A stretch of 64,000 nt of DNA from an uncultured Gammaproteobacteria bacterium. GTDB lineage: Bacteria; Patescibacteriota; Patescibacteriia; UBA9934. Of the stretch, positions 4,650 to 64,000 are shown piece by piece (positions within the stretch are counted from its first letter, which is position 1; every line of letters begins with the position of its first letter). Below the pieces are notes generated by a model. It was not told the origin of the DNA, did not search any database, and was given only the letters and a program-made list of their open reading frames with translations. The stretch is from the NCBI GenBank assembly GCA_964414795.1, contig CAYPWV010000001.1:5221-69220 (forward strand), in the 5' to 3' direction. The translations under genes and the position numbers were made by a program.

Positions 4650-5165
4650 TTAATTCGTTTCTGGGGTCGTCGTATCTTCTGCAACCGTATACGCTGGACA
4701 CGTTCCTGCCACAAACCCATTTTCTGTTAAACAATTCAAACCTTTTTGCAATCCGAGCTGCGCGCTTGCAGATTCAAGTTCAAATTGCACACGAAATGAT
4801 TCGCTATCTGAGGTGTAGCAATATGCGTTCTCTTGATCTGCGCATCCTGAAAGCTTTTTTACGCCTTGTTGAGGTGTTTCGGGAACAAATTCAATGTATG
4901 GCTCTGTGTCTGAAGAACAGGGAGAAGAAAAACCATCAGCTCCTAAACATGCCGTGGTAACCTGACCAAGTGCGAGTGCGGTAGATGCTTCGGGATACAC
5001 GCCCTTTTCCATGTAAAAAAGATCAAGACCAATTTGCACCTCGCGCATGTGTGCAATACGCGTGACATCACGTAGTTGCGAACGTGCATGAAGCACAAGA
5101 AATCCGGAGATTACCCCCAAGATTGCAATAACCGTACCAATTGCGAATATTTCTGTTTTGTGCAT
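4650..5165 (-). CDS. Membrane-anchored secreted protein, possibly pilin-like. It has an N-terminal hydrophobic helix and a Cys-rich C-terminal region but no canonical G/FTLIE cleavage motif.
   Basis: MHKTEIFAIGTVIAILGVISGFLVL N-terminus. Six Cys in the C-terminal half. Located between pilD and pilM. Confidence 0.4.
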   Translation of the reverse strand: MHKTEIFAIGTVIAILGVISGFLVLHARSQLRDVTRIAHMREVQIGLDLFYMEKGVYPEASTALALGQVTTACLGADGFSSPCSSDTEPYIEFVPETPQQGVKKLSGCADQENAYCYTSDSESFRVQFELESASAQLGLQKGLNCLTENGFVAGTCPAYTVAEDTTTPETN

Positions 5166-5195
5166 AAAAGGTTAATGAACGATAAACCATGAACT

Positions 5196-5567
5196 TTAAA
5201 GCTCTCTTCCCGCTCTGCGAACAATGTCTTGGGGAGTTTGATGACCGCGCAGTGCTACCGTTGCCGCCCCGGCATTCAGCAGCTCTTCGGCTTCTCCGGG
5301 GTGCAGAACCGATACCTCTACAATAACACGAGTTTGGGTAAGCGTAGGAAGGGTTTTCCAGCGCCGCAAGAGAAAGAGCATTTCGTCCTTCTGCTGCATC
5401 TGCGCAACAATCACATGCGGGCGAAATTGTACTGCCCTGCGTTCCGCATCTTCGGCACGCGATGACTCTTCCGCTTCCCATCCTTCTTTTTCAAATTGCC
5501 GCACAAGAACACTTCTGTAGCGTGCATCCGTGCATAAAATAATCACGCGAGGTTCTCGAGACTTCAT
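5196..5567 (-). CDS. Degenerate CheY-like receiver domain protein (pseudo-receiver). The phospho-acceptor Asp positions are not conserved.
   Basis: About 120 aa with receiver-like alternation (RVIILCTDARYRS...HVIVAQ...VIVEVS). Adjacent to and overlapping the pilM 3' end. The start is inferred at MKSREP. Confidence 0.35.
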   Translation of the reverse strand: MKSREPRVIILCTDARYRSVLVRQFEKEGWEAEESSRAEDAERRAVQFRPHVIVAQMQQKDEMLFLLRRWKTLPTLTQTRVIVEVSVLHPGEAEELLNAGAATVALRGHQTPQDIVRRAGREL

Positions 5568-18557: not shown

Positions 18558-19072
18558 AAGCGTAAAGCTTTCTTTATTATACCAACCATATCGCGATAGC
18601 TTGAACGCGTAAGCAGTTCATCGGCAGGAACCCATGCTACGCCTCTGATGGTTTCGCCTTGTTCTTGGGGTTTTGGTGGTCGAATGGTGGCTTCAGGTGG
18701 CGCTTCGAACAAAAAGTAATAAATGTACTTGTGGATAAGCAATCCTTTATGCACAAAACGATCGCGAAACCAAATGTCGATGTTATCGAGTTTGGCAATA
18801 TATTTTAAATTTCCCAGCGCCATCTCTTCTTTAATTTCACGAATGGCTGTTTGCCGATAACGTTCACCGGGGCGAACATGGCCCTTGGGAAACGCCCACT
18901 TGCCGTACGAGTCGATAACCATTGCAAATTGCAAACCTTCTTTTGTTCTGCGAAAAACAAGACCTCCCGCGGAGACCTCGTTTTTATGACGCTCAGACTC
19001 TCCTTCACTTCGTCGTGAAGAAACTGATCGCCGCATCGAGTTGGGGATCGAGGTTTGCATGATAATCGTCAA
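18476..19072 (-). CDS. NUDIX hydrolase
   Basis: Nudix box GKWAFPKGHVRPGERYRQTAIREIKEEMAL. Its 3' end overlaps the rplI start by 82 nt in another frame. Confidence 0.7.
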   Translation of the reverse strand: MTIIMQTSIPNSMRRSVSSRRSEGESERHKNEVSAGGLVFRRTKEGLQFAMVIDSYGKWAFPKGHVRPGERYRQTAIREIKEEMALGNLKYIAKLDNIDIWFRDRFVHKGLLIHKYIYYFLFEAPPEATIRPPKPQEQGETIRGVAWVPADELLTRSSYRDMVGIIKKALRLCGLPLPKMSAPSVRRARPWKFRKVTR

Positions 19073-20264
19073 GAGTACGAGTTACTACCTGATCGGGCGT
19101 AATACCTGCCTTATCAATAGAACGACCTTGCGGCGTGAGCCAACGTGCAACCGTAATTTTTACCGCACTGCCATCGGGTAAATCTTGATATTCTTGCACA
19201 CTGCCTTTTCCAAAGGTTTGTTCGCCAATAAGTGTGGCGAGACCGTAATCTTGGAGTGCCCCTGAAAAGATTTCAGACGCAGAAGCGCTTCCACCGTTGA
19301 CGAGTACCACCGTTGGCGTATTTGCAAAACGTGCATCACCATCACCCGGAAAAGCCGTACGATCTCCCCGAATTTCTTCTTGCACAACGGTTTGATTTCC
19401 CGTCCAGTATCCCGAAAGCGCAATTGCCGCATCAAGATATCCTCCAGGATTGTTCCGGAGATCCACGATAATACCTTTGACGTGCGCGTTTTGCAGCGTG
19501 TCTGCCGCTTCTGCAAAACCTGCAATTGTATCGTCACCAAAAACACTTACCGAAACAACACCAATGCCATCAGGGCGAATGGTTGTTTTTACACTGTGGT
19601 TTTTAATTTCGTCACGTGTGATGGTAACTGTGCGCGAATCTGCATCTTCTGTTCCAAAAAGCACCAAGGTAACATTGGTTCCTTTTTCTCCCCGAATTTT
19701 TCCTACCGCTTCAGAAACGGTCATGCCTGCCGTATCCACGCCGTCAATCGACAAAATAACATCACCTGCACGAACGCCCGCATTTTCTGCGGGAGTATCC
19801 GCAATGGGTGCAACAACAACCAAACTTCCTTCATCATTTAGCCCAAGCTCTGCACCAATGCCAAAGAATGTTCCCGAAAGTTCTTCGGAAAAATCTTCCG
19901 CCATCTCGGGCGTGAAGTACGTTGAGTACGGATCCTTTAATCCGTAAAGTAAGCCCTGTAATGCGCCTTCAAATAAATCTTCGTCGGAAACAGGCTGATC
20001 GACATATTTTTCTCGTACTAATGCCCAAACTTGCCAAAATAACGTGAAGTCAACATCTTGTGCAATATCTGCGGGAACGGTTACCGTGGTGCCAAAAATT
20101 TCTTCTGCCTGAGTATCATAAAAAAGCTCAGGTCCCTTTCCATAGACGTATCCCCCAAAAAACAATGCACCTGCGGCGCCTACACAAAGAAAGATTTTTA
20201 CCGGCATCCACAGTGTCCGCCACGGTGTGTGGGGGTTTGTAGACATATAGGAAGAGTGTATCAT
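19005..20264 (-). CDS. ctpA: Carboxyl-terminal processing protease (S41) with PDZ domain
   Basis: PDZ segment plus GIIVDLRNNPGGYL S41 motif and catalytic Ser/Lys region; N-terminal TM. Confidence 0.85.
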   Translation of the reverse strand: MIHSSYMSTNPHTPWRTLWMPVKIFLCVGAAGALFFGGYVYGKGPELFYDTQAEEIFGTTVTVPADIAQDVDFTLFWQVWALVREKYVDQPVSDEDLFEGALQGLLYGLKDPYSTYFTPEMAEDFSEELSGTFFGIGAELGLNDEGSLVVVAPIADTPAENAGVRAGDVILSIDGVDTAGMTVSEAVGKIRGEKGTNVTLVLFGTEDADSRTVTITRDEIKNHSVKTTIRPDGIGVVSVSVFGDDTIAGFAEAADTLQNAHVKGIIVDLRNNPGGYLDAAIALSGYWTGNQTVVQEEIRGDRTAFPGDGDARFANTPTVVLVNGGSASASEIFSGALQDYGLATLIGEQTFGKGSVQEYQDLPDGSAVKITVARWLTPQGRSIDKAGITPDQVVTRTLDDYHANLDPQLDAAISFFTTK

Positions 20265-54705: not shown

Positions 54706-55830
54706 TTAGTATACCAGCTCTTCCCATGTACCTAACGTTACGCTCATGTCTTTTACTTCCCCGCCGCGGGCAACTTGCAGAGTGACTTCTTGGCCAGGGG
54801 CGTACGTGGCAAGAATATCTGCGCACGTAACGGTTCGCGTAATACGCGTGTCATCCAAAGAAAGAATGATGTCGCCATTTGTTAAACCTGCACGATCTGC
54901 AGGACCATCTTTTACCACCGCGCTTCGCTCCCCTGCTTGCGCGATAACGAGTGCGCCCTCGGTGTACCCTTGTGTGAGCTCTGGATCGAGAGAAGAAATA
55001 CGCGAAAGATCCGCAAGAGAAACGCCGAGTGCGGCGTGGGCAATAGGCGACCCACGAAGTGCTTGTTTTACAAACGGACGAAGAGCTTGCGCAGGAATAA
55101 CGGTTCCGTCTTCTTCAACAAAACCAAACAGCCGTGTTTGCGAGGTAAGAAACGGTGTTCCGGGAGATGCCTCTTGCGCAATACGCCATACGGCACTTGG
55201 CTCTTCTGCAGAAACAATGCCATCCACACTTTGCATATCACGACTGACGACCGACGATGCATAAACCTCTCCTAAACTTCCTACACCAAAGATAGGAGCC
55301 CCAAGAAAGATCTCATCGCTTGCCGCAAGCTCAACCGGAGTCCAGCCTTGCGCATCTTGCACATGTATTGCAACCGCATCTGTTTGCGTATCTTCCACTA
55401 CCTTATCAGGAATAAACATTTCGCTTCCTCGCATCACCGAAAAACCGGTGTATCCGCCTTTTTTATCTGCATACCGCGCAAGCTGTGCACGTGTTGTGAG
55501 CATCCATCCATCCGCACTTACAACGACTCCTTCACCGTACACAAAATCATCTCCGAAAAGAAAAGGGCTTTGCGTTGCGTACGGGGTATCTACATCAACT
55601 ACATACACCACCGAATTCAAAACGGTTTCTTGTACTGCAGCAAGTGATTCTTCGAGCGTTGTGGGATTGAGTGCATGTTTTAAGGGAGTAAGTACCGCAA
55701 AGCGCCGATCATCTAAAAGAGATGCCGCATAGCGCTCGAGTGAATTACTCACAAGTACCGCCGAAGCCGTTCCTGCAAGCGCGGCTGCGAGAAGGGTGAG
55801 AAGAAAGATGAAGGGAAACTTTTTTTCCAT
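54706..55830 (-). CDS. Trypsin-like/PDZ (HtrA-like) secreted protein, possibly catalytically degenerate
   Basis: Signal peptide, trypsin-like fold segments and a C-terminal PDZ-like region (GLTNGDIILSLDDTRI). I could not identify the canonical GNSGGPL motif. Confidence 0.45.
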   Translation of the reverse strand: MEKKFPFIFLLTLLAAALAGTASAVLVSNSLERYAASLLDDRRFAVLTPLKHALNPTTLEESLAAVQETVLNSVVYVVDVDTPYATQSPFLFGDDFVYGEGVVVSADGWMLTTRAQLARYADKKGGYTGFSVMRGSEMFIPDKVVEDTQTDAVAIHVQDAQGWTPVELAASDEIFLGAPIFGVGSLGEVYASSVVSRDMQSVDGIVSAEEPSAVWRIAQEASPGTPFLTSQTRLFGFVEEDGTVIPAQALRPFVKQALRGSPIAHAALGVSLADLSRISSLDPELTQGYTEGALVIAQAGERSAVVKDGPADRAGLTNGDIILSLDDTRITRTVTCADILATYAPGQEVTLQVARGGEVKDMSVTLGTWEELVY

Positions 55831-55837
55831 ATTTGAT

Positions 55838-55919
55838 CGTCATGCCGGACACCCACCTCCGCTAAAGCTACGGTTGGGCAGGCCGATTCGGCATCTTTGA
55901 TTTTTAACTAATTTTTCTT
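55838..55919. repeat. Family A element, left part, disrupted by the IS insertion (right part at 57894-57933)
   Basis: CGTCATGCCGGAC...TTTTTAAC...TTTTTCTT on the left; TTTTTCTT-TATGCGATGGATCCCGGGTCAAGCCCGGGATGAC on the right. Confidence 0.7.
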
Positions 55920-55966: not shown

Positions 55967-56824
55967 ATGAAAACGCTGACTACAAGAGAATTCAATAAGA
56001 AATATACCAATGACGACGCTTGTCTTCAAGCTATTTTTGTAGCTCGATACGGTGGAGAAATATGTCCTTTCTGTCATAAGGAAGCGAATTTTTATAAATT
56101 AAATGGGCGAAAATGTTATCTCTGTTCTGTTTGCAAAGAGCATATTTATCCGTTGGCGGATACCATTTTTCACAAATCAGACACTCCTCTTAGAAGTTGG
56201 TTTGAAGCTATTTATAAGTTTGCCAATAGCCGTAATGGTGTAGCCGCTACCGAACTACAACGTGATCTTGGAGTGACCTATAAATGTGCATGGCGTATGG
56301 CGCGACAAATTCGTTTGCTATTTGAAACGAATAATCTTTTCCTGTCTGGCACGGTCGAAGCAGATGAGACATATGTCGGCGGCAAGCGGCGTGGTATTCG
56401 TGGTCGTGGTGCGAATGGTAAAACTCCGGTGTTCGGTATTGTAAAGCGCGGCGGTGAAGTCTTTGCTAAAACTGTGTCAAACGTGAAGGCATCAACTGTC
56501 ATGCCGTTAATCCGTAAGAATGTAAAGATTGGTACAACCGTAATGACGGACGAGTTCGGTATCTACAACAATACGAGACAATCCGGATACAGACATGAGC
56601 GTGTCAACCACGGAGCTAGGGAATACGTCCGTGGCGAAGTTCACACTAATACGATCGAAGGCTTCTGGTCACAGATGAAGCGGTCAATAGACGGTACACA
56701 CCACTCTGTAAGTTCTAAGCACCTCCAACACTACGTCGATGAATTCGCTTTTCGCTATAACCATCGGAACGCTTCATCTTTCCTTTTTGATCTGATGCTC
56801 GAACGGGCTGTGCAGCGATTTTAA
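55967..56824 (+). CDS. IS1595/ISXO2-like DDE transposase
   Basis: N-terminal Zn-ribbon (CPFCHK...CSVCKE), ISXO2-like core (EADETYVGGKRRG...GIVKRGGEV...MTDEFGIYN...HERVNHGAREYVRGEVHTNTIEGFWSQMKR). Confidence 0.9.
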   Translation: MKTLTTREFNKKYTNDDACLQAIFVARYGGEICPFCHKEANFYKLNGRKCYLCSVCKEHIYPLADTIFHKSDTPLRSWFEAIYKFANSRNGVAATELQRDLGVTYKCAWRMARQIRLLFETNNLFLSGTVEADETYVGGKRRGIRGRGANGKTPVFGIVKRGGEVFAKTVSNVKASTVMPLIRKNVKIGTTVMTDEFGIYNNTRQSGYRHERVNHGAREYVRGEVHTNTIEGFWSQMKRSIDGTHHSVSSKHLQHYVDEFAFRYNHRNASSFLFDLMLERAVQRF

Positions 56825-56896
56825 TAATCGCATCAAAATCTTCGACAGTTATAGCCTTATTTTTAGCGGGTTTATTTTTCATATCTTAATAATACA

Positions 56897-57856
56897 CTAA
56901 TCTTCTACAGTTTTGGTATTCTTCATTTCGATCTCTTTTTCACTTTCGACCCTTTGCTGTCTTAGAGAGGGTTGATTTAATGTTTCAATTATCTTTATCG
57001 CCGGTGTGACAATGGCTATACCCATGTTGACATTTTTTTCTTCCTCTTTTTTCGCATCTTCATCAGAAGGTAAATTATCAATCGCATCTTCAGAAGTCGG
57101 ATAATGCCCATGGATTAAACCTCCTAACCAAAATGGTCTCCCTCCTACATATGTCGTTCCGTTCTTTTGATTCGGTTCTTGAAAAAAAACAGGAGATCCA
57201 CTGATTCCGCCGATTGACCTCGCTTCTATAAGATACGCATCAATCTCACCATAGCTGGAAGTTTTTATTTTTTCTTGGGAGAGCATCGCGACATTTCCGG
57301 TTCTGACAATGGGAAGATTCTTCTTTTGTCCGTAGTGTCTACTAAATAAACCGGTAATGAATACCTCATTTCCTATCCCGATTTTACCATCTTTAATATG
57401 CTCCTCTGTTAATAACATCTCAATAGGAATCGTCATAACGTCATGTCTCTCTCTATCAAGAGAAAAAGGAATAACTACAACATCAGCGGGATTGTTATCG
57501 TGATCCGGATGCTCGAACCAATCCGCTGAACCCCCTAAACTAACGATATCTTTTCCTCCGTCGTGTGTATTTATGCTAATTCTTAAATTATCCAGCCCAT
57601 ACTTTTTTACTTTTGCGATGTTATGATGAGCAGTAACTAAGTAAATGAAGCCAAGATTTTTATTTACATCTGAAGGAATGGAAACTAAGAATCCCGTTCC
57701 ACCAAAATGACAACTTTTTACATTTTTCTCATCAGTTTGTTCGATCCCGATAAAGACAACACACTTTAAAACTTCATCCGGTATGAACATATTCCAATCT
57801 TTTGGCGGACTTAGATAATAGCGGACAACGCCGCCTAAACGGGTGTCGCTAATCAT
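56897..57856 (-). CDS. Cytoplasmic trypsin-like serine peptidase (S1, Trypsin_2-like), passenger gene of the IS
   Basis: Catalytic His (YLVTAHHN), Asp (NPADVVVIPF), Ser (GGISGSPVF). No signal peptide or TM seen. Confidence 0.7.
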   Translation of the reverse strand: MISDTRLGGVVRYYLSPPKDWNMFIPDEVLKCVVFIGIEQTDEKNVKSCHFGGTGFLVSIPSDVNKNLGFIYLVTAHHNIAKVKKYGLDNLRISINTHDGGKDIVSLGGSADWFEHPDHDNNPADVVVIPFSLDRERHDVMTIPIEMLLTEEHIKDGKIGIGNEVFITGLFSRHYGQKKNLPIVRTGNVAMLSQEKIKTSSYGEIDAYLIEARSIGGISGSPVFFQEPNQKNGTTYVGGRPFWLGGLIHGHYPTSEDAIDNLPSDEDAKKEEEKNVNMGIAIVTPAIKIIETLNQPSLRQQRVESEKEIEMKNTKTVED

Positions 57857-57943
57857 ATCGTTCGTATTGAGGTGCTGTCAAGGGATAGTCGCCTTTTTCT
57901 TTATGCGATGGATCCCGGGTCAAGCCCGGGATGACAGGACTTA

Positions 57944-58720
57944 TTAGCGCCACGGCGTAGTGAGAAATAACAGCAGCAGAAGCGCTCCTGCAAAAAGACT
58001 ATGACGCAACAACAATCGACGATGCACTTTTTGAAATGCGTGCGCACGCATAATGCCTAAGTACCATGCAGCGCATACTGCGAACACTGCAGCATTGGTA
58101 GTATATCCTGTTGGCAACCATGAACACGCAACGTAAATCTCGGTAAGGAGCAACGCACCAATACCTGCGTACATCCTTCCGGCCTCCCAGCTAATTTTAC
58201 TTACCCAAAATACCGCAACAAACACCGCAAACGTTATGAGCGCCATCACGAGCGCCATTGCCCACACCGGTGCTTCCAAAAATACTTGTGCGAGATACGT
58301 TGCGCTTGTGGTAAAAAACAATCCCCCTACCGCAAGCATGAGTGAAAGATATTCAAGCGAATAGGCTTGGTAGGTGCGTGGAAGATGATAAAAAGCAAAA
58401 ATATTTTCTGCAAAAAGTGCGAGACCGAGCGTTACCGCTCCGGCAAGAACCCATTTTGTTCCATCGCTTTCTAGGAGGAGAAAAAATGCGAGTGAAGACA
58501 AGAGGAGAAAAAGAGGCATGCCGAGAAATACCCAAAACCCTGTTCTCCGCACATCCCATACTAACAATCTTGCAAAGAGCAAAAGGATAAGACCGAAACA
58601 GATAAGCGCAGGGATGCCCCACGTAAACGGCGCAATAATAAGCACGATGAATCCCGCTGCGGCAAGGAACGCAATGGCAAACGGGGTAAGACGATGAAGA
58701 AAAATCACAGCGTAAGCCAA
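57944..58720 (-). CDS. Polytopic membrane protein, unknown function
   Basis: 258 aa, about 8 TM helices. Confidence 0.4.
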   Translation of the reverse strand: MAYAVIFLHRLTPFAIAFLAAAGFIVLIIAPFTWGIPALICFGLILLLFARLLVWDVRRTGFWVFLGMPLFLLLSSLAFFLLLESDGTKWVLAGAVTLGLALFAENIFAFYHLPRTYQAYSLEYLSLMLAVGGLFFTTSATYLAQVFLEAPVWAMALVMALITFAVFVAVFWVSKISWEAGRMYAGIGALLLTEIYVACSWLPTGYTTNAAVFAVCAAWYLGIMRAHAFQKVHRRLLLRHSLFAGALLLLLFLTTPWR

Positions 58721-59088
58721 GAATATTGAATATGTAACGCTTGCAAACGTAATTCTCCATCCTCCCTCTCTCCTGCAGCAAGTTTGCCAAATGCACCCAC
58801 AAGACCGATATGAATATCTTTCATGCTGGAGGGAATGCGGGTGATGTAGAGCAAGGTATCGTACGCCGCACTTGCATCGTGATCGGTATCATACGTATGC
58901 AAAACCACACGCACGGCGTTTTGATATTCTTCTTCACTTTGGGCAGGCTGCGAAGCATCCACCGCTTCTGCCGGAATACGATTTCCGGAACGTTCTTCTG
59001 CCTGGCGATGATATACCACCGCAACGCCCAGAAGAACGAGGAGCGTAATGCCGCTTGCAATGACAGGAAACCAATGGCGGGTAATCAT
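58705..59088 (-). CDS. Membrane-anchored hypothetical protein (127 aa)
   Basis: Single N-terminal TM. Confidence 0.35.
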   Translation of the reverse strand: MITRHWFPVIASGITLLVLLGVAVVYHRQAEERSGNRIPAEAVDASQPAQSEEEYQNAVRVVLHTYDTDHDASAAYDTLLYITRIPSSMKDIHIGLVGAFGKLAAGEREDGELRLQALHIQYSWLTL

Positions 59089-59090
59089 AG

Positions 59091-60116
59091 TTATAATATC
59101 TTAATTTCTTCCGCAAATACCATTCCCGCGTTTGCGAGAGGGATGGCGAGAATTGCACCAGGAATTCCTCCCAGCGTCCAGCCGATAAGCACGGCAAGCA
59201 AGCTAAGAAGCGGATTCATGCCCGTTGCGTGCTGCATGATTTTTGGCACAAGCATATGCCCTTCAACACCTTGAATAAGGAAGTATGCCGCCGCAACGAT
59301 AATTGCATGCACCGGGGAAAGCGAAAGAGCGAGCATAACTGCGGGAACTGCAGAAAACAACGGACCGATAAAGGGAATGACTTCAAGTGTTCCTGCAAGG
59401 AGTGCGAGAATGAGCGCATACGGCACACCAATAAGTGAAAGCGCGATATACGTCAGCACAAAAATAACGCCCATGAGCATGAGCTGGCCCCGAAGCCACG
59501 CACCCAACCGATTGCGCAACTTAATCGTTAACTGATTGATAAACGGATGATATTCGGCAGGAGCAATACGAGAAACGGAAGAAACGATGGCTTGTTTTTC
59601 TGCAACAAAATAGTATGCAAGGATGAGCAGAACCGCGATAGCTGCAAACACGCCAATTGCAGAAGAACCTACACCAAAAATTTGTGGCAACGCCGCAGAT
59701 ACGCCTGCACCGCGCAATGTTGTTACAAACGATGTAATCCAGGCAAGCCCATCTTCATGAAACGATGCGGCGAGTACGCTGCCTGTCGCTTGATCGATAT
59801 AGGGAGCAAACAACGGGATAATATTTCCAAATTCAGCAAGTGCGGGAGGCAGAACTACGTAGAGCAATCCTCCTAAAAGAAGGATGGCGAGAACATACAC
59901 GATGAGCGCGGCAATGCTCCGAGGCATGCGCTTGCGTTCGAGCATGTCGGCAAAGGGTTCCATGAGTACCGCTAAAAACAATGCACCTGTTACCAGCAAA
60001 ATAACATCGCGAATGGCAAATGCAAACCACACTGCTGCACATACAAAAAGCACACGGAATATGGTTCCGGTTGAAATAGCTGTTTGCGTTATGCTCCGTT
60101 TTGAAGAATCCCGCAT
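59091..60116 (-). CDS. AI-2E family transporter (PerM/UPF0118)
   Basis: AGTLEVIPFIGPLFSAVPAVMLAL...IQGVEGHMLVPKIM motif. Start uncertain (60116, 60173 or 60197). Confidence 0.75.
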   Translation of the reverse strand: MRDSSKRSITQTAISTGTIFRVLFVCAAVWFAFAIRDVILLVTGALFLAVLMEPFADMLERKRMPRSIAALIVYVLAILLLGGLLYVVLPPALAEFGNIIPLFAPYIDQATGSVLAASFHEDGLAWITSFVTTLRGAGVSAALPQIFGVGSSAIGVFAAIAVLLILAYYFVAEKQAIVSSVSRIAPAEYHPFINQLTIKLRNRLGAWLRGQLMLMGVIFVLTYIALSLIGVPYALILALLAGTLEVIPFIGPLFSAVPAVMLALSLSPVHAIIVAAAYFLIQGVEGHMLVPKIMQHATGMNPLLSLLAVLIGWTLGGIPGAILAIPLANAGMVFAEEIKIL

Positions 60117-60584
60117 ATGGGAGTAGTATACATTGAAAGTGTGCCTTCTCTCGCCACCAACCCCAAAGCTCATCACTCCTTCGATCTCATTGAACAATTT
60201 GAGGGAGGTTTGGTGTTAACGGGAGCTGAAGTAAAAGCCGTGATGCAAGGAAGTGCAAACATTAAAGGAGCGTTTGTTACACTTCGCGGTCGAGAGCTTT
60301 GGCTGCGCAATGCCTACATCGGGCACTACACTCCCGCCGGACCACAAAAAGAAGGCGATGAACGAAGAGATAGAAAAATTCTTGCACATAAGAGTGAGAT
60401 CCGCACCCTTATCATGCGCCACGAAACGGAACGGCTTACGCTCATCCCTCTCGACATTCATCTTTCCAAACGCCGGCTGAAAATCACCTTCGCCCTTGCC
60501 CGCGGAAAACGAAAACACGAAAAACGTGCAGCTATAAAGAAACGTGAAGTTGATCGTGAGATTCGAAGGGAGTTGAAGAATTAA
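60117..60584 (+). CDS. smpB: SsrA-binding protein
   Basis: NPKAHHSFDLIEQFEGGLVLTGAEVKAVMQGSANIKGAFV and C-terminal basic tail are SmpB-like; start uncertain. Confidence 0.85.
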   Translation: MGVVYIESVPSLATNPKAHHSFDLIEQFEGGLVLTGAEVKAVMQGSANIKGAFVTLRGRELWLRNAYIGHYTPAGPQKEGDERRDRKILAHKSEIRTLIMRHETERLTLIPLDIHLSKRRLKITFALARGKRKHEKRAAIKKREVDREIRRELKN

Positions 60585-60829
60585 GCGAATATAAATCTTT
60601 TTCGTGCAAATGCATGCCCTGAAGGAGTTTTTAAGTATCGTTCGAAATCTCGAGCTTTTTCATTTTCTTTGAAAGCCGCATACCAGACAAGCGTCCAGGG
60701 ACGATATTTTTTTGTGTAAGAAGATTTCCCCTCATTATGCTCAATGAGACGAGCGGACATATCTCGTCCTGTGTACCCATAATAGTATCGACCATCACTT
60801 TCGCTCTTAAGAATATACGCAATATACAT
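60581..60829 (-). CDS. GIY-YIG nuclease-domain protein (small, stand-alone)
   Basis: YIAYILKSESDGRYYYGYTGRDMSARLIEHNEGK is the GIY-YIG motif. Confidence 0.7.
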   Translation of the reverse strand: MYIAYILKSESDGRYYYGYTGRDMSARLIEHNEGKSSYTKKYRPWTLVWYAAFKENEKARDFERYLKTPSGHAFARKRFIFA

Positions 60830-61002
60830 ATCAGTTTATGATAACAAAAATACGACCCCTTTCCGGATCATAATTTTATTTGATTCCACTCTGCTCGTTT
60901 AGCGTGCTTCATTTGAGACGCGCCCCACGTCGCCCTCGCTACGCTCGAGCTATGTTGGGGGCATGCCTAACGAAGTTCTGCCTTCGGCAGAACGGAGTGG
61001 CA

Positions 61003-61416
61003 TGGTGGACCCGGGGGGAATTGAACCCCCATCCGTACCACATTCTCCAAAACTCTTTCTTCCAAGCTCATTCGCGTTTAAACGGTTAACGTCTTTTTCG
61101 GTCGAGAAACACGACGAACAGTGAAACCGACGATCATGCAGCAAGAGTCCCGGGCGTAAGGCATGATGCTCACACACAGCAAGTCAGAGATTTATTGCAT
61201 GACGGTGTTATGTACTGACGACATAACGGTCATGGGTGGCGGCGTTATTACGCGGCGACCGGAGCAAATGAGAACGCGCGAGTCGCCGAAGCGAAAGCGG
61301 TCTTCATTTGTGAAAATACGTTTGCATGTACTTTCTGAGGCGTGTGATGACGCGGAACGCCTCGTCCGCGGCTTGAGAGGGATTGGGAATGTAGACGTCG
61401 AAAGCCTAGCAGGCCC
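61003..61416 (-). ncRNA. ssrA: tmRNA (SsrA)
   Basis: 3' tRNA-like end GGGGGUUCAAUUCCCCC-CGGGUCC-ACCA. The 5' GGGCCUGCUAGGCUUUCGACG pairs with the 3' acceptor strand (with two G-U wobbles) and resembles the E. coli 5' end. Internal reading frame GCA AAC GUA ... CCG GUC GCC GCG UAA UAA. Convergent with smpB. Confidence 0.8.
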
Positions 61417-61424
61417 TTGTTAGT

Positions 61425-61552
61425 GATTTGCTACCCAAGTTCGTCCATTTGCGGCGTCGTTTTCTGCGTTTGACCTCGTCGTACTGATGTAGTACGCCTC
61501 GATCAAGCCTCGAAAACTCCTTGCAACTGAACGAACTTAGTAGCAAATCAAC
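61425..61552. repeat. 19-bp inverted repeat (TGATTTGCTACCCAAGTTCG / CGAACTTAGTAGCAAATCA) bracketing a palindrome-containing ~90-bp segment between ssrA and infC
   Basis: Seen directly. Function unknown (MITE-like element or regulatory site). Confidence 0.4.
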
Positions 61553-61645
61553 GCGTTCACAGTTCGCCCCTTACTCTACCATTGATCTGGCATTCTCTCA
61601 ATCATTCTGCTATCATTTTTCTAACTTTCATTTAATCCCCCAAAA

Positions 61646-62203
61646 ATGCGCATCCACAAACACCGTAGGTTCCAGGCTCCTAAGTTTGCTCCTCAACTGT
61701 ATAAGGCGAATAAAGCCATTGCCGCAGAAGAAGTGCGAGTCATTGATGAAGAAGGCAAGCCACTTGGCATTCTTCCTACTGCAAAAGCTATTGCTATTGC
61801 CGAAGAACGTGAGCTTGATCTTATTGAAGTTTCTCCAAAAGCAGAACCTCCCGTTTGTCGTATTGGTGATTACGGCCAGTTCAAATATCAAAAAGAAAAG
61901 GAAGCTCGTAAGCAACGCGCGCAATCAAAAGAAGTGGAAATTAAAGGTGTGCGTTTGGGGTTGCGTATTGGCGAAGGTGACCTCAATATGCGCGTGCAGC
62001 AAGGCGCAAAGTTCTTTGAACAGGGTGATAAATTGAAGGTAGAAATGATTCTCCGCGGCCGTGAGCGTGCCTATCAAGCGCAGGCGCAAATCGTATTTGA
62101 TACGTACGTCACCAAGCTCGGCGCATTTTATCCTGTAAAAATTGAATCTCCGGTAAAAGCACAGGCAGGTAAATTGCACATGATTTTAGCGCGACAGACG
62201 TAG
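61646..62203 (+). CDS. infC: Translation initiation factor IF-3
   Basis: EEVRVIDEEGKPLGIL...IDLIEVSP...PVCRIGDYGQFKYQ...KGVRLGLRIGEGDL...ILRGRE. Gene order infC-rpmI-rplT. Confidence 0.85.
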   Translation: MRIHKHRRFQAPKFAPQLYKANKAIAAEEVRVIDEEGKPLGILPTAKAIAIAEERELDLIEVSPKAEPPVCRIGDYGQFKYQKEKEARKQRAQSKEVEIKGVRLGLRIGEGDLNMRVQQGAKFFEQGDKLKVEMILRGRERAYQAQAQIVFDTYVTKLGAFYPVKIESPVKAQAGKLHMILARQT

Positions 62204-62233
62204 GTTCGTGCACAAACGAGTTGACGCATATAA

Positions 62234-62272
62234 AGAAATTCCGTATACTCCTGCGGAATTTTCTTTTTCCTT
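62234..62272 (+). terminator. Hairpin plus T-run between infC and rpmI (attenuator/terminator)
   Basis: GAAATTCCG...CGGAATTTT followed by CTTTTTCCTTTTT. Confidence 0.45.
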
Positions 62273-62275
62273 TTT

Positions 62276-62473
62276 ATGGCTATCAAGACGAATAAATCCA
62301 TGGTAAAACGCTTTAAAGTAACCACCTCTGGCAAGGTTATGAAGCGAAAAGCCGGACAGGCACACTTCAACTCCCGCGAATCTGGCAATACAACCCGCAA
62401 TAAGCGTACCGACGTTGCAATGCCAAAAACCATTGCTCGTGCGCTTAAAACCCTCATGCCTTATAGCTTCTAA
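62276..62473 (+). CDS. rpmI: 50S ribosomal protein L35
   Basis: KSMVKRFKVTTSGKVMKRKAGQAH is an L35-like basic protein; 65 aa. Confidence 0.85.
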   Translation: MAIKTNKSMVKRFKVTTSGKVMKRKAGQAHFNSRESGNTTRNKRTDVAMPKTIARALKTLMPYSF

Positions 62474-62559
62474 ATCACAAGATCCTGAGCTCGGCGAAGG
62501 ATCTAGCGAACGAATAAGAGATATCTGACAAATGGGTTCTCTGGACCCTTCCTATCGTC

Positions 62560-62600
62560 AGGGTCTTTCCATTCACTTCAAACTCTTAACTTCATACTTC
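62560..62600. repeat. Family C right-arm remnant (CACTTCAAACTCTTAACTTCATACTTCAACC)
   Basis: Matches the right arm of the copy at 52470-52508. Lies between rpmI and rplT. Confidence 0.55.
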
Positions 62601-62613
62601 AACCTCTCTCCAT

Positions 62614-62958
62614 ATGCCTCGTGTCAAACGCGGTACACAACATGTTAAGCGCCGCAATAACCTTCTCGCTCGCGTAAAGGGCTTTAATTGGGGTCGCAAG
62701 AGCAAAATTCGTCTTGCTCGCACTGCAATGCTTAAGGCAGGTGTTTACGCTTTCCGCGACCGCCGAGCAAAAAAGCGCACTTTCCGCAACTTGTGGACCA
62801 TTAAAATCAATGCTGCAGTACGCGAACTTGGTACCACTTACTCGGTTTTCATCGCCAATCTTAAAAAGGCAAACATCGCTATTGACCGCAAAGTTCTTGC
62901 CGTTTTGGCCGAAAAGAACCCCAAAGTCTTTGCAAAAATCGTAGAAGCTGCAAAGTAA
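62614..62958 (+). CDS. rplT: 50S ribosomal protein L20
   Basis: MPRVKRGTQHVKRRNNLLARVKGF...RDRRAKKRTFRNLWTIKINAAVRELG is consensus L20. Confidence 0.9.
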   Translation: MPRVKRGTQHVKRRNNLLARVKGFNWGRKSKIRLARTAMLKAGVYAFRDRRAKKRTFRNLWTIKINAAVRELGTTYSVFIANLKKANIAIDRKVLAVLAEKNPKVFAKIVEAAK

Positions 62959-62971
62959 CGTTACAAAAGTC

Positions 62972-62999
62972 AAAAAATCCCCCGTTTGGGGGATTTTTT
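62972..62999. terminator. Bidirectional intrinsic terminator AAAAAATCCCCC-GTTT-GGGGGATTTTTT
   Basis: Perfect hairpin flanked by A and T runs immediately after rplT. Confidence 0.8.
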
Positions 63000-63029
63000 G
63001 ACTTTTCCCCCCTTTTATGTTATTATTTA

Positions 63030-63644
63030 TTGTCCGTTTGGGTGCCATCCCGGCTCCCCGACGCAAGTTTCGAGACCCCAAAACCCAAGACGCCGGCAAG
63101 CAAAAACGCCGGCAAAAGGAAAGAGGAATTGCCCACTACACCCCAAAAAACCAACCCCTGGATCTGGATTGGCATCCTCGTCGTCGCCACATCTCTGGGC
63201 CTCGCGGGCGCAAAGGGCTGCGGATCGGCCTACGACTGGCTCAAGTCGGCGGCCGCCGTCCACGATGCGGAGGTCGTCGCCCCCCCGGCCCCGGTCGACG
63301 TCTCCGATCAGCCCTTCAACTGCTCCAACGCCCACGAGATCACCTCCGACCTGGAGGGCAATGGAACGCGGGAGAAGTTCGCAGTGATCCCGCTCAACGG
63401 CGGAGCTTCGGCTCTGTACGTGGAGGGAATCTTCGTGAGCAGCGGGACCTGCTACGAGGGCGCCAACGACACGGTCACTAACGGCGACATCTCGGGACTG
63501 TGCGATGACCTGCAAAGGCGAATCAGCACCGAGCTTCCGACCGGAGGCATCCGCGTCACCGAGCCCCTCATGATTTGGGGGCTCAGGATCCGGTTCGACC
63601 TCGGGTCGGCCGATGGCCTCGAGAAGTGCTCCGCGCCGAGCTAG
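63030..63644 (+). CDS. Hypothetical membrane-anchored protein in a high-GC segment (low confidence; several long overlapping ORFs exist here because of the GC content)
   Basis: Basic N-terminus, TM helix (NPWIWIGILVVATSLGLAGA), Cys-containing soluble domain. GC rises sharply from 63000 onward. Confidence 0.3.
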   Translation: MSVWVPSRLPDASFETPKPKTPASKNAGKRKEELPTTPQKTNPWIWIGILVVATSLGLAGAKGCGSAYDWLKSAAAVHDAEVVAPPAPVDVSDQPFNCSNAHEITSDLEGNGTREKFAVIPLNGGASALYVEGIFVSSGTCYEGANDTVTNGDISGLCDDLQRRISTELPTGGIRVTEPLMIWGLRIRFDLGSADGLEKCSAPS

Positions 63645-63840
63645 AAGCGGCGCGAGGCAAGAAGGTGACCGTCACAAAACGCTGCCCTGTCGGTTTCGAC
63701 CGATGGGGCAAACCGCTGACAAAGTACTAGGAGATACAACTCCTTCGGACCTGTCAGCGGGAAACTCACGCCTGCTGACAAGTACCGAAGAGCGATCTTC
63801 TGGGAACGTTGGCGGGCGTTTTGCATTTCGAGAAACGCGG

Positions 63841-63862
63841 GGGCGGATACGTTGATCCGCCC
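63841..63862. repeat. Family F hairpin GGGCGGATACGTTGATCCGCCC, intergenic copy
   Basis: Identical core to 33136-33157. Confidence 0.6.
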
Positions 63863-63933
63863 TTACATGCCCTTCATCGCAAGGCTTCAAAGATTTGCTC
63901 ATCTTGGAAACCCCACGCTTTTAATTTCGAAAA

Positions 63934-63963
63934 GATCTTCACATTGATAATTCTGTGAAGATC
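63934..63963. promoter_or_regulatory. Perfect 10-bp-arm palindrome GATCTTCACA-TTGATAATTC-TGTGAAGATC (operator-like) overlapping a TTGATA -35-like hexamer
   Basis: Seen directly just upstream of an ATG at the window edge. Confidence 0.35.
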
Positions 63964-64000
63964 ATGTTGTATTGTATATTTCGCACCAGTAACAGGATGA

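Follow-up and report, generated by a model that had tools for sequence, protein, structure and literature searches.

The 64,000-nt stretch of DNA analysed here (the window) comes from an uncultured bacterium (assembly GCA_964414795.1, contig CAYPWV010000001.1) and includes ssrA, a gene for a one-piece transfer-messenger RNA (tmRNA) of 414 nt, at positions 61003–61416 of the minus strand. Downstream of ssrA and on the same strand lies a stand-alone gene for a GIY-YIG nuclease of 82 aa (60581–60829), followed by smpB (60117–60584, plus strand), which encodes the protein partner of tmRNA (Pfam SmpB, 1.2e-42, residues 13–155) and whose true start may be a few codons downstream of 60117. Upstream, an inverted repeat separates ssrA from infC (61646–62203, plus strand), the gene for initiation factor IF-3 (Pfam IF3_N and IF3_C). 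A preliminary description of this DNA, made from the sequence alone, had named the tmRNA, the GIY-YIG gene between smpB and ssrA and the repeat-bounded segment before infC, and all three were found to be present.

For comparison, relatives were collected by a scan with the SmpB protein, one genome being taken per species. The two closest are L001, a Patescibacteria metagenome-assembled genome, and L002, labelled Kapaibacterium, with SmpB proteins 95% and 84% identical to that of the window, respectively. L002 has the gene order of the window, namely AI-2E transporter, smpB, ssrA, infC and rplT, with rpmI recognised by inspection of open reading frames (ORFs); the infC neighbourhood with rpmI and rplT is kept in relatives, as seen from synteny in L002 and L006. 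Loci about 50% identical in SmpB are L003, L004, L007 and L060, labelled Uhrbacteria, and L005, L006 and L008, for which the label 'uncultured Gammaproteobacteria' is doubted. A tmRNA gene adjoining smpB was detected with Rfam in L001–L005, L008, L009 and L060, and in L006 below threshold. In the window lineage ssrA is convergent with smpB, whereas in more distant relatives it follows smpB on the same strand.

The tmRNA and its tag

The Rfam tmRNA model RF00023 (cmscan) was placed at exactly 61003–61416 on the minus strand, as proposed in the preliminary description, with a score of 86.0 bits (gathering score 47, E = 7.5e-33) and a match spanning model positions 1–374 of 374 without truncation. 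The RNA begins GGGCCUGCUAGGCUUUCGACG and finishes GGGGGUUCAAUUCCCCCCGGGUCCACCA. Its tRNA-like domain is canonical, as had been stated, and comprises a 7-bp acceptor stem, GGGCCUG/CGGGUCC, with two wobbles, G3·U70 and U6·G67, a T-arm GGGGG-UUCAAUU-CCCCC, and a discriminator A followed by an encoded CCA (ACCA). G3·U70 is the alanine identity pair and was kept in all nine tmRNAs tabulated (the window and eight relatives). The pseudoknot PK1, recognised by stem pairing at tmRNA positions 47–80 (61337–61370, minus strand), is of the H type with two interleaved stems, CGCGGA/UCCGCG (6 bp) and GAGGCGU/ACGCCUC (7 bp). In L002 the corresponding stems are CGCGGG/CCCGCG and GAAGCGU/ACGCUUC, both still paired despite two-sided changes. 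PK1 ends 11 nt before the GCA codon at which translation is expected to resume, and the E. coli tmRNA has an 11-nt spacing too.

The tmRNA was the only structured RNA found by Rfam in the region scanned (56000–64000), and no tRNA gene was found by ARAGORN in the whole window. ARAGORN also gave no call for ssrA, at default settings or with thresholds relaxed to 90%, in the whole window or locally, and at 80% and 70% it returned only spurious 'permuted' calls with nonsense tags. The ssrA genes of L001 and L002 were likewise missed. The window ssrA is thus an ARAGORN false negative. The length of the tag was considered as the cause of the miss and rejected, because the 25-residue tag of L008 is called. 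Both ARAGORN and Infernal tmRNA models had been recommended beforehand for confirmation of the gene; reliance on the first alone would have led to a wrong dismissal of the tmRNA, and the second gave the full-length match with the resume codon at GCA. Genome surveys by ARAGORN could in the same way wrongly report this lineage as having no ssrA. The sequence at 61003–61416 is best read as a functional one-piece ssrA of a Patescibacteria (candidate phyla radiation, CPR) bacterium related to Uhrbacteria.

The tag frame, placed by the covariance model and by comparison with relatives, opens with the resume GCA at 61325 and covers 25 codons, ANVFSQMKTAFASATRAFSFAPVAA (61245–61325, minus strand, with the stops). 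It is closed by UAA UAA at 61250–61245, which falls in the loop region of the next helix. With the charging alanine, 25 codons would append a tag of 26 residues. Conservation of the peptide extends over eleven tmRNAs, that of the window and those of ten relatives, whose tags have 21–25 codons in the same frame. Those compared by name with the window tag have 25 codons in L001 (ANVFSQMKTAFASATRSFSFAPVAA), L002 (ANVFSKVKAVVASALRTPSFVPVAA) and L008 (ANTFSKVKSVFASAFRVPSLAMVAA), 22 codons in L009 (ANLFSKVRSAFAGTLTPAPVYA) and L060 (ANNVIAKLKNAFSVPSFAPVLA), and 21 codons in L003 (ANIISKVRNAFSMPVPVMVAA), L004 (ANVFTKVRDMFRMPATALVAA), L005 (ANTLSKVRDMFRMPATALAVA) and L006 (ANVFSKVRNAFSVPAPVMVAA). They share the start AN-x-F-S-K-V-(K/R)-x-x-F and a hydrophobic end of the (V/A)AA type; the window tag ends PVAA, and those of the relatives end VAA, AVA, VYA or VLA.

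The resume codon cannot be read from a single sequence, and several in-frame Ala codons lie within the tag frame. The preliminary description had allowed for a resume codon further 3' and a shorter tag. On such a reading, a later in-frame GCN, for example one of the GCU triplets at codons 10 and 21, would serve as the resume codon, and the length of the frame would be accidental. Four observations speak against this. RF00023 aligns the first GCA AAC to its consensus resume site with top posterior probability, and the 42 surplus nucleotides are accommodated as an insertion inside the tag. The same GCA lies at the E. coli distance from PK1. ARAGORN, on its own, chooses the same start and calls identical tag frames of 21–25 residues in the six relatives that it detects. 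Finally, the first 11 residues are the most conserved part in the eleven tmRNAs and vary mainly at third codon positions: the numbers of extra nucleotide states in the first 11 codons are 10, 6 and 20 at codon positions 1, 2 and 3, respectively. Such third-position-biased variation is not expected of an untranslated stretch and thus disfavours a short tag. The tags of the window and L001 differ in two synonymous codons and one conservative (Ala/Ser) codon, and most sequences have stop codons in the +1 frame. A later resume codon is therefore very unlikely, and the 25-codon tag, with the GCAAAC start, double UAA and -VAA end that had been described, is supported as real as far as sequence analysis goes.

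The description of this tag as unusually long holds in comparison with tags of the E. coli type and does not hold within the clade. Judging from the tags compared, 21–25 codons is the normal state of the Uhrbacteria-related clade, long when set against the tags of E. coli and B. subtilis, and a tag of 27 residues, called unusually long and assigned to Lon, has been reported for Mycoplasma pneumoniae (PMC8403727). A search of open-access papers and preprints found no paper on tag length in CPR bacteria. The window tmRNA resembles E. coli SsrA (RF00023) in G3·U70, the T-arm, the CCA end and the position of PK1 11 nt before GCA, as well as in the A-N start of the tag, its hydrophobic -AA end, the stops in the next helix and the adjacent smpB. 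It differs in having 25 tag codons, compared with 10 in E. coli, and in the clade-specific start block AN.FSKV(K/R)..F. By analogy with the E. coli system, alanyl-tRNA synthetase would charge the tmRNA via G3·U70, the charged RNA would enter stalled ribosomes together with SmpB, encoded next door, and translation would resume at the GCA 11 nt past PK1, read 25 codons and end at UAA UAA.

The (V/A)AA-type end of the tag presumably serves as a C-terminal degron of the kind read by ClpX, ClpA, FtsH or Tsp, and the conserved start block may give an adaptor or protease an additional point of recognition. The Mycoplasma tag offers a comparison. It ends AFA, and the organism is without ClpXP, ClpAP and Tsp (PMC3985003); its degradation by Lon is credited in the latter paper to Gur & Sauer (2008) and Ge & Karzai (2009). 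The two tags are alike in that both belong to hosts with reduced genomes, both are more than twice the usual length (more than 20 residues in the window), and both have conserved sequence well upstream of the C-terminus. Conserved sequence so far from the C-terminus suggests multipartite recognition. On the other hand, the window tag is shorter, has the canonical end -VAA and not AFA, and shows no sequence similarity to the Mycoplasma tag. The Tsp-less Mycoplasma differs further from the window, which itself encodes an S41 C-terminal processing peptidase with a PDZ domain (Tsp/Ctp family; 19005–20264, minus strand). In E. coli, the Tsp/Ctp family degrades ssrA-tagged proteins outside the cytoplasm (PMC3985003), and the S41 peptidase is of relevance to a tag ending -VAA. 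The long tag of the clade, with its N-terminal block and canonical end, provides a second natural case, after Mycoplasma, in which the co-evolution of tags and protease sets in bacteria with reduced genomes can be studied. The tag sequence could also be used for finding tagged peptides in metaproteomes of uncultured bacteria.

Two tmRNA genes of relatives have peculiarities of their own. That of L006 (4560–5056) scored 42.7 bits, under the gathering score, with its 5' part unaligned, and was missed by ARAGORN too; a possible acceptor strand, GGGACUG, is located some 120 nt upstream of its expected place, a sign that the 5' part of this tmRNA may carry an insertion. The gene of L001 ends ACGA (1970–1973) and not ACCA. 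A sequencing error is possible; otherwise, the CCA would need post-transcriptional repair or addition.

The GIY-YIG gene downstream of ssrA

The tmRNA itself is ordinary, and the more notable part of the locus is the GIY-YIG gene behind it. The 82-aa product matches PF01541 with 54.3 bits (threshold 22.6; 1.6e-14), the domain covering residues 2–70. When a profile of the family was compared with the PDB, the only matches at E up to 1 were UPF0213 protein BH0048 (1zg2; 2.9e-8), EF2693 (1ywl) and entries for eukaryotic SLX1 (1.5e-7 to 1e-5). The catalytic Tyr of GIY, Tyr of YIG, Arg and Glu are conserved in the family and present in the window protein; Y17, R27, H31 and E63 did not vary in 36 sequences, and Y5 and N32 hardly varied. 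These matches, to UPF0213 and SLX1 and not to UvrC or I-TevI, place the protein, as judged by profile comparison, in a Slx1/UPF0213-like minimal branch, and it is predicted to be a structure-specific nuclease. No NCBIfam model matched any of the four family members searched, and the protein had no match in collections of phages (50,697 records) and plasmids.

A 'Slx1 cluster' of minimal prokaryotic GIY-YIG proteins has been described, and a GIY-YIG–TrmH fusion led its authors to suggest a possible RNA role for prokaryotic Slx1-like proteins (PMC1564403). The window protein shares with the prokaryotic Slx1/UPF0213 proteins (1zg2 and 1ywl) a single GIY-YIG domain of about 80–100 aa and the Tyr/Tyr/Arg/Glu set, and differs from them in a conserved C-terminal motif of its own, FERYLKTPSGHAF, and in being tied to the 3' flanks of tRNA and tmRNA genes and to hairpins (see below), a linkage not reported in PMC1564403. 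Minimal stand-alone proteins of this type are widespread. We know of no function for them.

The stop codon of the GIY-YIG gene overlaps that of smpB within TTAA. In L001 and L002 there is no GIY-YIG gene, and the convergent ssrA and smpB are separated by 80 and 32 nt, respectively, consisting only of a bidirectional terminator (A-tract, hairpin and T-tract). The window has 418 nt in place of those 32–80 nt, and its homology to L001 and L002 stops exactly at the smpB stop and the tmRNA 3' end. The insert carries a single ORF, that for the 82-aa protein, and no integrase gene. The spacer of L001 was considered as an ORF-less relic of the insert and rejected; like that of L002, it is a plain A-tract/hairpin/T-tract terminator. 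In comparison with the nearest relatives, the GIY-YIG gene thus appears as the ORF of a 418-nt cassette, which starts 1 nt after the CCA of ssrA and replaces their terminator. In L006, a homologue (48% identical) follows directly on the tmRNA gene of that genome, on the same strand, and there the unit of ssrA and the GIY-YIG gene is in the opposite orientation relative to smpB and infC.

The closest homologues in a large protein collection are 64–71% identical, and their neighbourhoods are mutually unrelated. Each of them is located 110–170 nt downstream of a co-oriented tRNA gene, for tRNA-Ser(CGA) in two contexts and tRNA-Asp(GTC) in the third. A metagenome scan with the family alignment gave 80 loci, 62 of which had at least 480 nt of upstream sequence and were used for assessment of linkage, an RNA gene being counted as linked when it ended within 400 nt. 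A co-oriented tRNA or tmRNA gene was found upstream of the GIY-YIG gene in 45 of these 62 loci, at distances of 20–313 nt (median about 120). As controls, an RNA gene on the opposite strand was present in 1/62 loci, and one within 400 nt downstream in 4/71. Among clusters formed at about 90% amino-acid identity, upstream linkage was observed in 49 of 64.

The linked genes include at least 14 tRNA identities plus tmRNA. tmRNA accounts for 8 of the 49 linked clusters (about 15–20% of linked RNA genes), which is far above the expectation from one gene in about 45. Some loci negative by ARAGORN are linked too, namely to the 3' part of a tmRNA, to a truncated 3' end of tRNA-like type or to a group I intron. 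In several lineages, tmRNA genes and a wide range of tRNA genes have homologous cassettes at this position. The window protein is 66–71% identical to copies behind tRNA-Ser and tRNA-Asp and 48% identical to the ssrA-linked copy of L006, the hosts of those copies all being about 50% identical to the window in SmpB. That the window protein is nearer to tRNA-linked copies than to the L006 copy argues for movement between RNA genes and not for a single ancient ssrA-linked gene. The recurrence of such cassettes at tRNA-like 3' ends had not been recognised in the preliminary description. A search of open-access papers and preprints revealed no report of GIY-YIG genes linked to bacterial tRNA or tmRNA genes.

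Group I introns (RF00028) immediately precede the post-CCA hairpin (see below) and GIY-YIG gene, on the same strand, in L079 (1898–2334) and L112 (2137–2328), and one in L113 (about 1700–1900) was judged by eye, with the 3' half of a tRNA discernible beyond it. Introns of group I have been reported in tRNA genes of Patescibacteria (PMC13011429). In L105, L108, L139, L127, L129 and L133, the cassette begins about 100–130 nt upstream of the GIY-YIG start, after a CCA that ends or follows a protein-coding stretch, for example ...CPSCHH, which resembles the zinc-binding region of a transposase, and with no recognisable tRNA. These cases suggest that the target may be a ...GCCA/CCA context and not only tRNA-like genes.

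Hairpins of the cassette and its possible nature

The spacer between the RNA gene and the GIY-YIG ORF is conserved across unrelated loci. In its Patescibacteria-type form, the CCA is followed directly by UCCCACUUCG-(small hairpin)-CUACGUUGGGGA, a loop and UGCCCCUAACGUAGC-(hairpin)-GCGAAGUGGGGC, which make up two mutually inverted domains; then come a terminator-like hairpin and an extended -10-like UUUUGUUAnnAU about 10 nt before the ATG. In the window, a somewhat degenerate version of this arrangement occupies 61002–60830. Domain 1, recognised by the homologous post-CCA motif and RNA folding, starts 1 nt after CCA and reads UGCCACUCCG-[UUCUGCCGAAGGCAGAA]-CUUCGUUAGGCA (60964–61002, minus strand), its outer stem CAUGCC/GGCAUG taking in the CA of the CCA end. 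Domain 2 is roughly an inverted copy of domain 1 and reads UGCCCCCAA-CAUAGC-(hairpin)-GCGACG-UGGGGC (60922–60963, minus strand); the form GCCCC-yAA-CrwAGC-(hairpin)-GCGAmG-U-GGGGC is common to L067, L068, L071, L074 and L076. A terminator scan located the terminator-like hairpin at 60872–60851, followed by a U-run that leads into the extended -10-like TGTTATCAT at 60846–60838 (whole segment 60838–60872, minus strand). A terminator-like hairpin and then TTTTGTTAnnAT occur also in L061, L068, L072, L074 and L076. The -10-like element is a putative promoter and lies 8 nt before the ATG of the GIY-YIG gene, which implies a nearly leaderless mRNA.

Across the family at large, the core hairpin is UGCCCnnC-CGWAGC-loop-GCGAAG-GnnGGGC, accompanied by an inverted form that starts at the CCA; some minimal cassettes have the inverted form only, 20–40 nt before the ATG. 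Covariation was assessed in 24 sequences on the six outer pairs, which had not been used in selection of the sequences. Five of the six (5-30 to 9-26) change on both sides (CG, UA, GC and AU), and the sixth changes only to G·U. The covariation score was 0.301, as compared with 0.093±0.017 for shuffled sequences; none of 500 shuffles reached it, and slid controls gave at most 0.123. At two inner positions, no standard pair was seen in any of the 24 sequences. Of the 61 linked RNA genes, 52 are followed by the post-CCA motif, as compared with 11 among 50 others (p = 1e-11), and several of these 11 are clear solo hairpins, including one behind the L003 tmRNA. By a strict definition, 31 hairpins were found in 271 kb of GIY-YIG loci and one in 416 kb of unrelated smpB loci. 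Tandem hairpin units occur in L092 (four copies), L120 (three), L109 and L078. Rfam 15 gave nothing at gathering thresholds in the cassette spacer, and a permissive scan of L068 (2760–3020) gave a tRNA only. We could not find the cassette described in Rfam, NCBIfam or the open-access literature searched.

One further candidate core at most was found in the window: CGUAGC-UUUA-GCGGAG at 55857–55872 (minus strand) is exact, has partly complementary flanks UGCCCAAC...GUGGGU, and is some 5 kb away from the ssrA locus, with the ATG of an ORF (54706–55830) for an HtrA-like protease (Trypsin_2/PDZ) 22 nt downstream of it. It may be a solo hairpin of the cassette family; it falls outside the strict definition, which asks for five of the six flank positions to be paired. 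This core adjoins an intact gene for an IS1595-family transposase (55967–56824, plus strand; DDE_Tnp_IS1595, 2.5e-47, and a zinc ribbon), which is located about 3.3 kb from smpB and represents a further mobile element near the locus. A link of the cassette hairpins to GTAG-type repetitive extragenic palindromic (REP) elements was considered, and no evidence of identity was found; GTAG is there an unpaired end tag, and those elements go with RAYT transposases.

Given the linkage and the hairpins, the cassette is probably a small, mobile element targeting the 3' flank of tRNA-like genes. The presence of a gene for a structure-specific nuclease beside repeats that form hairpins or cruciforms suggests that the repeats are its substrate. 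According to the mechanism proposed, to which as a whole we would give about even odds, the cassette would be a small selfish or semi-domesticated element, the nuclease would act on hairpin or branched DNA formed by the cassette's own repeats at the tRNA-like 3' flank, and the cassette would spread or persist there via break-induced repair. The linkage, together with a covarying hairpin with fixed non-standard pairs, provides a concrete candidate substrate and a testable role for Slx1/UPF0213-type proteins.

The GIY-YIG gene could instead be a resident host gene, whose product acts on 3' trailers of tRNA and tmRNA or on tRNA-gene DNA, with the hairpins as processing or regulatory sites, and which was lost in L001 and L002. 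Its strict co-orientation with the RNA gene at a short distance agrees with this explanation, as do the pairing of the first hairpin with the CCA end itself, the frequent end of the second hairpin 0–10 nt from the ATG, where an autoregulatory site would be expected, the lack of a target duplication, and the RNA role suggested from the TrmH fusion (PMC1564403). However, the linked RNA gene varies from genome to genome over all the identities found, even among proteins 64–71% identical; the gene is absent from the relative that is 95% identical in SmpB; hairpins are amplified in tandem, up to the four copies of L092 and three of L120; and solo hairpins stand behind other tRNA genes and the L003 tmRNA. 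Moreover, the motif is found in either orientation on one strand, as would be expected of a site recognised in DNA more than of a single RNA motif. A resident gene, although the chief alternative, is thus considered unlikely.

Insertion of the 418 nt as a remnant of an integrase-borne genomic island or prophage was also considered, as ssrA 3' ends are well-known integration sites. [quoted passage not shown] This attL/attR-like pattern is that of a small element integrated into the 3' end of ssrA, and it lends such an origin some plausibility. In contrast, the window insert is only about 420 bp, lacks an integrase gene and has no duplicated ssrA 3' segment at its far end; the same architecture is intact in dozens of unrelated loci, and the protein is unmatched among phages and plasmids. 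An island remnant is therefore highly improbable.

Comparison with two known systems shows likeness and difference. The Seg proteins of phage T4 are free-standing GIY-YIG homing endonucleases, and SegB lies within a tRNA gene cluster (PMC13096335). Like the phage Seg genes, the window gene stands between conserved genes, beside a tRNA-type gene, and is present or absent in close relatives. However, Seg proteins are much larger and have DNA-binding domains, whereas the window protein of 82 aa consists of the catalytic domain only, and the cassette family is unmatched in the phage records and has conserved hairpin repeats. REP elements with a RAYT transposase form REPtrons (PMC3733652), which the cassettes resemble in having short imperfect hairpins with conserved unpaired positions, in their occurrence singly, as inverted pairs, in tandem and solo, and in the nearby small nuclease-type gene. 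They differ in that the enzyme is of the GIY-YIG type and not a Y1/HUH transposase, the hairpins lie only upstream of the gene, and their anchor point in the loci analysed is the CCA end of a tRNA-like gene, whereas REPs are scattered after protein-coding genes.

Taken as a whole, the best explanation of the locus is a tmRNA with a long tag that is normal for its clade and a GIY-YIG cassette behind ssrA, for which the probability is put at about 80%. Several points weigh against it or against parts of it. ssrA is not called by ARAGORN, translation of the tag in the window organism is a prediction from sequence, and no gene for an AAA+ protease, and none for ClpX, ClpP, Lon or FtsH, was found among the ten large window ORFs scanned for a tag protease. 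Regarding mobility, only one copy of the GIY-YIG gene is present in the window, and neither a repeat of the ssrA 3' end at the far boundary (attL/attR type) nor a target-site duplication was found in 60500–61700. The 82-aa protein has no DNA-binding domain of the kind in known homing endonucleases, and its ORF lies outside the inverted hairpin pair and not between the hairpins. About a quarter of the loci have no upstream tRNA-like gene. The idea that the cassette supplies or needs an encoded CCA was rejected, as this was not enriched (36/42 linked tRNAs and 22/30 others, p = 0.23). Finally, the direction of the event may be the reverse, the window retaining an old cassette that L001 and L002 have lost.

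A more far-reaching explanation goes beyond the cassette as a probable mobile element. It would see in such cassettes a kind of very small mobile element not described before, or a hairpin–nuclease partnership like that of REP and RAYT, that inserts specifically at tRNA and tmRNA 3' flanks across several bacterial phyla and entered behind the window ssrA recently; secondarily, the tag of 21–25 residues would be a bipartite degron read by a protease and adaptor set other than that of E. coli. This is put forward tentatively, as somewhat likelier to be wrong than right. If mobile, the cassette would be a new and very small kind among the elements that exploit tRNA and tmRNA genes, and would account for part of the variation around ssrA. 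In the preliminary description, the locus was suspected to be a hotspot for small mobile elements, in agreement with which both the ssrA 3' flank and the ssrA–infC spacer differ between relatives.

The inverted repeat upstream of ssrA

The segment between ssrA and infC had been described as bounded by inverted repeats, and this was borne out. The imperfect repeat (61424–61550) lies 8 nt upstream of the tmRNA 5' end and has arms of about 29 nt at 61424–61452 and 61523–61550, with 70 nt between them. On the ssrA strand it folds to a hairpin of about 127 nt with -62.2 kcal/mol (z = -6.5), none of 200 shuffles being as good. A consensus scan gave a candidate ssrA promoter, TTGAGA-17-TAGAGT with an upstream TG, at 61573–61601 on the minus strand. 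This promoter-like site lies upstream of the repeat, and hence the hairpin may belong to the pre-tmRNA leader.

In L002 the arm termini are the same and enclose an unrelated interior (z = -9.2), and there are extra copies of the right arm. In L001 the repeat sequence is absent and a different strong hairpin stands at the same place (z = -4.5), which suggests that a hairpin may be a conserved feature of the ssrA leader and not an insertion. The repeat may well be a fast-evolving hairpin in the leader or promoter region of ssrA, separate from the cassette and probably inside the pre-tmRNA leader. A transposable element of the miniature inverted-repeat type (MITE) is a somewhat less probable reading. 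It would explain the arms of about 29 nt with their strong hairpin, the arm ends kept in L002 around an unrelated interior, the extra right arms and tandem duplication there, and the absence of the element from L001. Against a MITE, no target-site duplication was seen on reading the flanks, and the arm sequence occurs once in the 64-kb window and elsewhere in L001–L060 only in L002, apart from a 13-nt match at chance level in L011.

The ssrA–infC spacer is about 680 nt long in L002, as compared with 230 nt in the window. The L002 spacer contains two tandem units of about 270 nt (5008–5420), which are 92–97% identical and include right arms of the inverted repeat.

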